Shown piece after piece: positions 5,624-5,668 of a DNA stretch of 64,000 bases; position 1 is the stretch's first letter; each line of letters starts with the position of its first letter. The stretch is from the sequence record LC680885.1, one strand, 5' to 3'. The notes beneath the pieces were generated by a model. It was not told the DNA's origin and made no database searches. It worked only from the letters and a program-made list of their open reading frames with translations. The position numbers and the translations under genes are program-made. This stretch comes from Staphylococcus phage S6.

Positions 5624-5668
5624 TATATATTATAAGATTGTAGAATATTAAGAGCATGATATTCTACA
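5624..5668 (+). promoter_or_regulatory. TATATATTATAA box followed by hairpin (element family E)
   Basis: TATATATTATAAG, then the stem TGTAGAATAT / ATATTCTACA, located 35 nt upstream of the RNAP beta gene. Confidence 0.4.

Follow-up and report, generated by a model that had tools for sequence, protein, structure and literature searches.

Predicted early promoters of Staphylococcus jumbo phages are mostly coupled to a conserved RNA hairpin at the predicted first transcribed base

Staphylococcus phage S6 was analysed over a stretch of 64,000 nucleotides (sequence record LC680885.1), referred to in this text as the window. Thirteen copies of an AT-rich box lie upstream of genes in the window and resemble the early promoters of Bacillus phage AR9. 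The new finding concerns what follows the box: in S6 and its staphylococcal relatives, the early promoters are mostly coupled, at the predicted first transcribed base, to a conserved RNA hairpin. The box itself was already known, because the TATATTAT motif had been predicted upstream of 29 genes of phage MarsHill (Korn et al., bioRxiv 10.1101/2020.12.14.422802). Neither the preprint on MarsHill nor the papers on DC4 and SA1, the transcriptome study of AR9 or reviews mention a hairpin in this promoter context.

The window has a G+C content of approximately 24%. Its closest kin are the Staphylococcus jumbo phages vB_SauM-UFV_DC4 (DC4) and PALS_2, at 96-98% identity, and further relatives at 80-94% identity include Madawaska, MarsHill, LY01, AH12, SA1, Machias and PB50. 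The Staphylococcus jumbo-phage clade is related to Bacillus phage AR9/PBS1 and encodes two multisubunit RNA polymerases (RNAP), a virion enzyme and a non-virion one (Korn et al., bioRxiv 10.1101/2020.12.14.422802). Subunits of the non-virion enzyme are found in the window at 5704-7845 (beta) and 21380-24312 (beta' from 21380), as annotated from relatives. These S. aureus jumbo phages are therapeutic candidates, and a literature search for a transcriptome of the clade returned none. Scanning IMG/VR with a 24-mer of the box returned only two unrelated AT-rich contigs, neither of which carries a series of the motif.

Identity of the box as a predicted early promoter

The consensus of the box in the window is 23 nt long (wwTAArTATATATTATAAwwwTG). 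A weight matrix (PWM) trained on 55 distinct sites, all taken from relatives and none from the window, returns exactly 13 sites in the window, each scoring at least 20.7 bits, and the range between 12 and 20.7 bits is empty. All 13 sites fall in intergenic DNA, which occupies 8.7% of the window, and point at the next gene; by our own calculation the chance of such placement is approximately 1e-14. A 13-mer of the box, with at most one mismatch, has 29 matches in the window against 12.5 expected, and none of 100 shuffles reached this number. The census in the whole DC4 genome amounts to about 36 early promoters.

A preliminary description of this DNA had listed ten boxes followed by a hairpin, and all ten are present within a few bases of where it placed them. 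The box without a hairpin that it noted near 38238 is also real. Two copies had been overlooked, one at 28136-28158 and one on the minus strand at 62990-62968 (Table 1). A minus-strand site reported near 21215, before the HU gene, falls outside the consensus: it matches the octamer only, carries A at +1 and scores below 12 bits. The same description had considered that the boxes might be mere AT-rich background. This objection is answered by the TATATTAT octamers inside genes, which occur without the flanks, without the conserved TG and without the hairpin, and none of the 34 TATATTAT octamers elsewhere in the window has a hairpin of the promoter type. No early box was found ahead of the beta' genes at 21380. 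An extended -10-like sequence, TGATATAAT, lies at 21271-21279, approximately 100 nt upstream of this boxless gene, and may represent another type of promoter.

In AR9, 41 early start sites have been mapped by differential RNA sequencing and primer extension, giving the consensus AAATATATATTAT-(6N)-G+1 (Lavysh et al. 2017, PMC5312081). Early transcription in AR9 does not depend on protein synthesis, and the authors of that study infer that the injected virion RNAP is the responsible enzyme (PMC5312081). The S6 boxes have in common with the early promoters of AR9/PBS1 and MarsHill the core AAATATATATTAT, a 6-nt A/T spacer and a conserved G. The AR9/PBS1 promoters are likewise intergenic and located before early-type genes, including a non-virion RNAP subunit, in phages with two multisubunit RNAPs each. 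The Staphylococcus motif differs from that of AR9 in extending upstream (TTTAAATA) and in having a fixed T at -1. When sites are picked on the upstream half of the motif only, G still occupies the AR9-equivalent +1 in 74% and T the -1 position in 81%; the conserved G is thus not an artefact of the search pattern.

An earlier suggestion that the box belongs to an AT-rich promoter class of a phage RNAP therefore holds, as the box and its spacing to the conserved TG match the AR9 early promoter. This homology supports the view that the boxes are early promoters from which the injected, virion-packaged multisubunit RNAP (vRNAP) transcribes, with a predicted start (+1) at the conserved G located 6 nt past TATATTAT. 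That the box could instead be a host sigma-A -10 element (TATAAT/TATTAT) transcribed by host RNAP is highly improbable: TATAAT ends several boxes and a start 6-8 nt downstream would likewise land on the hairpin base, but neither a -35 hexamer nor a TG extension is conserved in the sequence logo of the boxes, sites of the sigma-70 type do not exceed their number in shuffles (168 vs 179.5 and 180 vs 198), the conserved part spans 23 nt in a design identical to the AR9 vRNAP promoter, and AR9 early transcription proceeds without synthesis of a host-type factor (PMC5312081). Upstream AAGCGTAAC was also considered as a second (late, AACA-type) promoter and rejected; it has just three exact copies, all within one duplicated cassette, is not enriched with one mismatch (7 vs 4.7 expected), and was treated as part of the duplication.

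A hairpin at the predicted transcription start

Leaders were folded over 45 nt from the predicted +1 and compared with 200 dinucleotide shuffles. A dominant single hairpin is present in 10 of the 13 window leaders, with z scores of -2.4 to -7.3 and minimum free energies (MFE) of -7.6 to -18.5 kcal/mol. Under a fixed criterion (first paired base at or before +4, at least 6 bp, and -5 kcal/mol or lower), hairpins accompany 10/13 promoters in the window, 24/36 in the whole DC4 genome, 5/7 in MarsHill, 7/9 in AH12, 6/11 in SA1, 9/10 in PB50 and 5/6 in Machias. As controls, the other TATATTAT octamers in DC4 have a hairpin in 2/120 cases and random [TA]G positions in DC4 in 234/3000 (7.8%). The binomial probability of 10/13 at this background is approximately 2e-9 by our own calculation.

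The hairpin is phased to the predicted start. Among 58 distinct hairpins of the clade, pairing begins at +1 in 42, at +3 in 15 and at +4 in one, an anatomy that fits the earlier proposal that transcripts start at the hairpin base and so carry a 5'-terminal stem-loop. Their stems are 9-13 bp long in the window; over the whole clade the stem length is 7-14 bp (median 11) and the loop size 3-9 nt. Rfam returned no matches in the window at the gathering threshold.

Promoters of the same type outside the clade mostly lack the hairpin, which is present in 0/8 AR9 promoters, 1/6 of Listeria phage LPJP1 and 1/7 of phiKZ; the coupling is therefore a trait of the Staphylococcus clade and was not inherited with the promoter. 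AR9 leaders of approximately 30 nt are unstructured, whereas Staphylococcus leaders have a 23-33 nt stem-loop at the very 5' end. Seven early-promoter matches were counted within the first 50 kb of phiKZ; the single one with a hairpin lies at 45568, upstream of gp54 (nuclear shell protein), and its hairpin extends from the predicted +1 with -7.6 kcal/mol.

Selection on structure in the sense transcript

Comparison of orthologous leaders indicates that pairing is maintained. In the leader hairpin of the non-virion RNAP beta gene (5640), 97.7% of alignment cells are paired over four phages, with two compensatory and three wobble pairs. The 20071 hairpin, compared across orthologs and paralogs, is 100% paired and includes one compensatory change from C-G to U-A. 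Covariation statistics within single groups of 4-6 sequences are low in power (34/500 and 106/500 shuffles reach the observed score), and pooled counts were relied on instead. In the pooled ortholog sets of the same geometry, 116/133 stem pairs are invariant, whereas 23/64 loop columns and 30/120 tail columns are variable, and every one-sided stem change that preserves pairing yields G.U on the sense strand. Pairing is also intact where the stems themselves differ, as in the SA1 and AH12 orthologs of the 18329-18357 site. The orthologs of the 34156 site in DC4, AH12, PB50, SA1 and MarsHill bear different hairpin sequences.

The strand on which the structure is selected is indicated by its wobble pairs and mismatches. 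In sense-strand folds of the 58 hairpins, G.U pairs number 39 in the stems and A.C 1x1 mismatches are absent, a count with some ascertainment bias; a strand-symmetric count of 12 G.T against one A.C lowers this bias, on few events. Of the 58 hairpins, 43 fold more stably in the sense than in the antisense strand (Wilcoxon p = 1.5e-7). Because of the compensatory and G.U changes, the near absence of A.C and the greater stability of sense folds, the comparison points to an RNA helix on the sense transcript that is under selection, and neither to a DNA cruciform nor to an antisense element.

Leader architecture and possible functions

The layout of the leaders is regular. The hairpin ends at +23 to +33, the Shine-Dalgarno (SD) sequence follows 12-24 nt past the stem, at +37 to +55, and the start codon lies at +49 to +66. 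In AR9, the SD is located at +21 to +32 with no hairpin. The stem-to-SD distance of 12-24 nt resembles the AR9 distance of 21-32 nt between +1 and SD, and the Staphylococcus leader looks like an AR9-type leader to which a 5' stem-loop has been added. Several promoters without a hairpin have the SD near the 5' end, at +4 for 28158 and at +6 to +26 in DC4. In folds of the whole gap the SD stays unpaired, and the hairpin is therefore not a translational occluder.

A mechanism for the hairpin can be proposed by analogy with cellular leaders. Approximately 70% of the early promoters in the clade would be fused to a module in which the first 23-33 nt of the mRNA fold with 0 or 2 unpaired 5' nucleotides, followed by a 12-24 nt A-rich spacer, a strong SD and the start codon. 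The stem-loop would shield the triphosphorylated 5' end from an RppH-type pyrophosphohydrolase and from the 5'-exonuclease RNase J1/J2, and early phage mRNAs would live longer as a result. B. subtilis RppH requires at least two and prefers at least three unpaired 5' nucleotides, and mRNAs are stabilised by 5' structure (PMC3997798). RNase J1 of S. aureus has been described as inhibited by a 5'-terminal hairpin, which has been invoked for the stability of processed cspA mRNA (PMC3386247). Protection of early mRNAs from 5'-end-dependent decay is rated the likeliest function, and held with moderate confidence, because a stem at +1 or +3, with a strong SD beyond a short A-rich spacer, is the layout expected of a protection element.

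Besides the ascertainment bias in the wobble count, several points weigh against this interpretation. Start sites across the clade are predicted from homology with AR9, a clear hairpin is missing at about 30% of clade promoters, and many stems are AU-rich with moderate stability (-5 to -10 kcal/mol). AR9 is hairpin-free (0/8) though its host B. subtilis also has RppH and RNase J1; protection alone therefore leaves the Staphylococcus-only distribution unexplained.

Other functions have been proposed. The hairpin may be more than a generic stabiliser and serve as a clade-specific partner of the sigma-less vRNAP programme, acting either as a co-transcriptional initiation element on AT-rich deoxyuridine (dU) DNA or as a self mark against a wave of 5'-dependent RNA degradation, whether phage-induced or of the host. 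Either version would account for a gain in Staphylococcus jumbo phages and not in AR9, LPJP1 or phiKZ, although the proposal is considered rather unlikely. More narrowly, the hairpin could be a cis element required for transcription by the vRNAP, assisting promoter escape, stripping purine-rich RNA off an AT-rich (probably dU-containing) template or preventing R-loops. Such a role would fit the strict single-nucleotide phasing to the predicted +1, the restriction of the coupling to one clade of vRNAP phages, and the purine-rich initial transcript (G, A 81%, R 98%, G 64%), which the 3' arm would sequester. It is nonetheless a doubtful explanation, as approximately 30% of the consensus promoters that these genomes contain are hairpin-free, one of them by a deletion that kept the box, and in AR9, LPJP1 and phiKZ the homologous promoters function, or at least occur, without hairpins.

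Recognition or processing by a protein, for instance a structure-specific factor, has comparably low probability. Here early expression would be timed or tuned by a protein that acts on the hairpin, such as an RNA-binding protein of the phage, a nuclease or the RNase III of the host, or the hairpin would mark phage mRNAs as self during host mRNA shut-off. A near-identical GAGGTAATGAC..GTCATTACCTC-TAATAT module precedes unrelated genes at 20071, 26106 and two other DC4 loci, and the 5' hairpin of S. aureus cspA is known to be processed by RNase III (PMC3386247). Against such a site, the 58 distinct hairpins share only their first ~4 nt, with loops of 3-9 nt that have no common sequence and stems of 7-14 bp. 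Typical RNase III substrates are longer than these stems. A sequence-specific factor is unlikely because the stems and loops are diverse and orthologous sites exchange the entire hairpin sequence.

Distinction from transcription terminators

Very unlikely is the explanation that the hairpins are terminators or insulators against upstream read-through or antisense transcription which merely lie beside promoters. The hairpins do stand just past stop codons of upstream genes, and, read in the antisense direction, the hairpin runs into the complement of the promoter spacer, which is T-rich, with 18357-18329 flagged on the minus strand. The preliminary description had held that several copies carry T-runs and would terminate upstream genes. 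This is true of 8498-8529, which has a distal T-run, and marginally of 26106-26134, but not of the remaining copies. Over the 12 nt past the stem, A accounts for 47-86% at 11 of the 12 positions and 30% at the ninth, and T for 13-47% at 11 of the 12 positions and 66% at the ninth. Because the hairpins are followed by A-rich sequence and not by T-runs, they are not intrinsic terminators, and the claim that they end upstream genes fails for want of a U-tract in the sense tails.

A terminator scan of the ten promoter hairpins gave 26106-26134 as its sole, marginal flag on the sense strand, and flagged true terminators elsewhere at 28064-28107, 39810-39846, 43858-98 and 20847-79. Separate terminator-type hairpins precede the promoter within the gaps 5552-5703 (at 5560-5601) and 28065-28175 (at 28064-28107), and the annotated terminators of MarsHill are at positions other than the promoter hairpins. 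Termination 0-2 nt past the start would also kill the transcripts of the promoter itself, the phasing with +1 would be left without explanation, and in an antisense RNA each G.U pair would be turned into an A.C mismatch. Intrinsic terminators resemble the promoter hairpins in being short stem-loops of similar size, and the stem of the true terminator at 62079-62113 (GAGGTAAC..) shares sequence with some of theirs. They differ in having a U-tract and a position at gene ends, whereas the promoter hairpins have an A-rich tail and are locked to the start site.

Strong hairpins (-13 to -24 kcal/mol) without an early box or T-run were also observed right after stop codons at 7850-7887, 24320-24349 and 42401-42460. 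The stem at 7853-7884 (GGAGTAATGATC) is almost identical to a promoter-coupled hairpin upstream of the ligase operon in AH12 and PB50 (L003:1279, L005:10063). At the corresponding position of the ligase operon (13188-13221), the window has no promoter.

Stem families and exchange of leader modules

Stems fall into families, from which recognition by a common factor had been proposed. This proposal is weak, as the GAAGAAAGA family arises from segmental duplication and other loops and stems vary freely. The GAAGAAAGA stems sit in a duplicated cassette, a 99-nt repeat family at 28429, 29463, 30163 and 39419, whose downstream genes encode paralogous small membrane proteins. The genes behind the GAGGTAATG stems at 20071 and 26106 are unrelated. 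Stems of this family recur at two further DC4 loci, and the bidirectional terminator at 62079-62113 is built on a similar one; sharing of GAGGTAATG stems by module shuffling is possible.

Individual sites differ between close relatives. At 38254-38280 a deletion of ~15 nt, common to DC4, PALS_2, MarsHill and LY01, removed the 3' arm of the hairpin and kept the box; orthologs in AH12, PB50, Machias and SA1 retain a GAAGTT(GATA)AACTTC hairpin. At 34156-34181 the window has GAGATTAATAAT.. and DC4 has GAGTAATATT.. (at 190030), the entire hairpin being replaced despite ~98% genome identity here, which suggests mosaic exchange of leader modules. The LY01 ortholog (L014 3062) of 8498-8529 has the same stem with the loop reverse-complemented (ATTAACTTG to AAGTTAATG). 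This inverted loop is the footprint of an inversion at a palindrome.

Features of the window

The 13 predicted early promoters and their hairpins are listed in Table 1.

Table 1. Predicted early-promoter boxes and leader hairpins in the window (64,000 nt). Scores are PWM bits for boxes; MFE is in kcal/mol; hairpin positions are relative to the predicted +1.
Feature	Coordinates	Strand	Predicted +1	Score or fold	Context
Early-promoter box	5618..5640	+	G5640	21.6 bits	before non-virion RNAP beta gene (5704-7845)
5'-terminal hairpin	5640..5667	+		from +1; 11 bp stem, 6-nt loop; MFE -11.3, z -4.39	
Early-promoter box	8476..8498	+	G8498	24.6 bits	gene 8563-10452
5'-terminal hairpin	8498..8529	+		from +1; MFE -16.5, z -4.84	sole copy with distal T-run
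Early-promoter box	18305..18327	+	G18327	25.9 bits	gene 18380-18808
5' hairpin	18329..18357	+		from +3; 13 bp stem, 3-nt loop; MFE -14.1, z -5.35	
Early-promoter box	20049..20071	+	G20071	23.4 bits	gene 20135-20518
5'-terminal hairpin (GAGGTAATG family)	20071..20101	+		from +1; 12 bp stem, 7-nt loop; MFE -18.5, z -7.29	
Early-promoter box	26084..26106	+	G26106	20.7 bits	gene 26162-26668
5'-terminal hairpin	26106..26134	+		from +1; 13 bp stem, one G.U pair included; MFE -15.9, z -6.78	
Canonical terminator with T-run	28064-28107			terminator scan	ahead of the 28136-28158 box
Early-promoter box without hairpin	28136..28158	+	G28158	23.8 bits; z -0.64	SD at +4; gene 28176-28421
Early-promoter box	28441..28463	+	G28463	24.7 bits	gene 28516-28794
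5'-terminal hairpin	28463..28491	+		from +1; 11 bp stem, G1.U closing pair; MFE -8.2, z -3.49	
Early-promoter box	29475..29497	+	G29497	24.7 bits	gene 29537-29722
5' hairpin (GAAGAAAGA family)	29499..29525	+		from +3; 9 bp stem; MFE -7.6, z -2.37	
Early-promoter box	30175..30197	+	G30197	25.9 bits	small open reading frame 30250-30354, paralogous to 29537-29722 (E = 6e-11)
5' hairpin	30199..30225	+		from +3; MFE -9.6, z -2.61	
Early-promoter box	34134..34156	+	G34156	28.1 bits	gene 34197-34727
5'-terminal hairpin	34156..34181	+		from +1; 11 bp stem; MFE -10.6, z -5.16	
Early-promoter box, hairpin lost by deletion	38232..38254	+	G38254	26.9 bits; z +1.32	gene 38281-38628
Early-promoter box	39431..39453	+	G39453	25.9 bits	gene 39491-39802
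5' hairpin	39455..39480	+		from +3; 10 bp stem; MFE -10.3, z -3.50	
Early-promoter box	62968..62990	-	G62968	26.9 bits	gene 62927-62121
Weak 5' hairpin, not significant	62943..62968	-		7 bp stem, large loop; MFE -3.4, z -0.49	

Other repeats were observed in the window. Within the run of paralogous small-membrane-protein cassettes (28.4-31.4 kb), which have one early promoter and hairpin each, a 99-nt direct repeat at 29705-29803 and 30337-30435 (97% identity) contains an SD-like AAAGGAGGAAAGAGG and a hairpin AGACCTAATGGAC..GTTCATTAGGTCT. A 13-mer, TTTTCTATGATCC, recurs on the plus strand at 28803, 29790, 30422, 31530 and 35841 and on the minus strand at 43062, and with at most one mismatch it has 9 matches in the window against 2.2 expected. 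The DC4 genome holds 12 exact copies of TCTATGATCC, each preceded by TT or GT (mostly TTT). Intergenic copies of TTTTCTATGATCC are conserved in all Staphylococcus relatives, lie 15-45 nt upstream of the SD and are often preceded by a hairpin plus TATAAT (GGTCTATAATTTTCTATGATCCAAA), and intragenic copies encode a conserved F-Y-D-P motif. TTTTCTATGATCC includes CTATG, similar to the phiKZ late-promoter core TATG, and could act as a middle or late promoter or as a signal of another kind.

Significance

The boxes provide a precise map of candidate early transcription units, 13 in the window and about 36 in the DC4 genome. An early promoter of the AR9 type has gained a post-transcriptional add-on in one clade, which suggests that survival of early mRNA is a selected trait in staphylococcal infection. 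The cassette of ~75 nt, comprising promoter, 5' stem-loop, A-rich spacer and SD, is usable for expression engineering in Gram-positive hosts. The 58 different stems also form a natural series for deriving the rules of 5'-end protection against RppH and RNase J.

Comparison with known systems

If the stem-loop protects early mRNAs as proposed, it has counterparts among cellular 5' stabilisers. The leaders of E. coli ompA and papA and B. subtilis aprE, and processed S. aureus cspA, likewise have a hairpin 0-2 nt from the 5' end and upstream of an accessible SD. A host with RNase J1/J2 is a further feature in common (PMC3997798, PMC3386247). The cellular stabilisers belong to individual genes, whereas here a whole class of viral promoters carries the element, with a stabilising effect that is predicted.

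Two other phages combine their own RNAP with hairpins. Phage N4 also packages an RNAP in its virion, and its early promoters contain a sequence able to form a hairpin. The N4 hairpin forms in the DNA, upstream of the start, and serves as the recognition element, whereas the hairpin described here lies downstream of +1 and has an RNA (G.U) signature. T7 class III transcripts, such as the gene 10 leader, start with a stem-loop at +1 and have the same order of phage-RNAP promoter, stem-loop, spacer and strong SD. T7 differs in using a single-subunit RNAP at late promoters in a Gram-negative host, and in having one conserved sequence where the Staphylococcus phages have many divergent stems. In concept, the promoter-locked 5' hairpin of the Staphylococcus jumbo phages resembles the stem-loops at the 5' end of T7 class III transcripts and the cellular 5' stabilisers.

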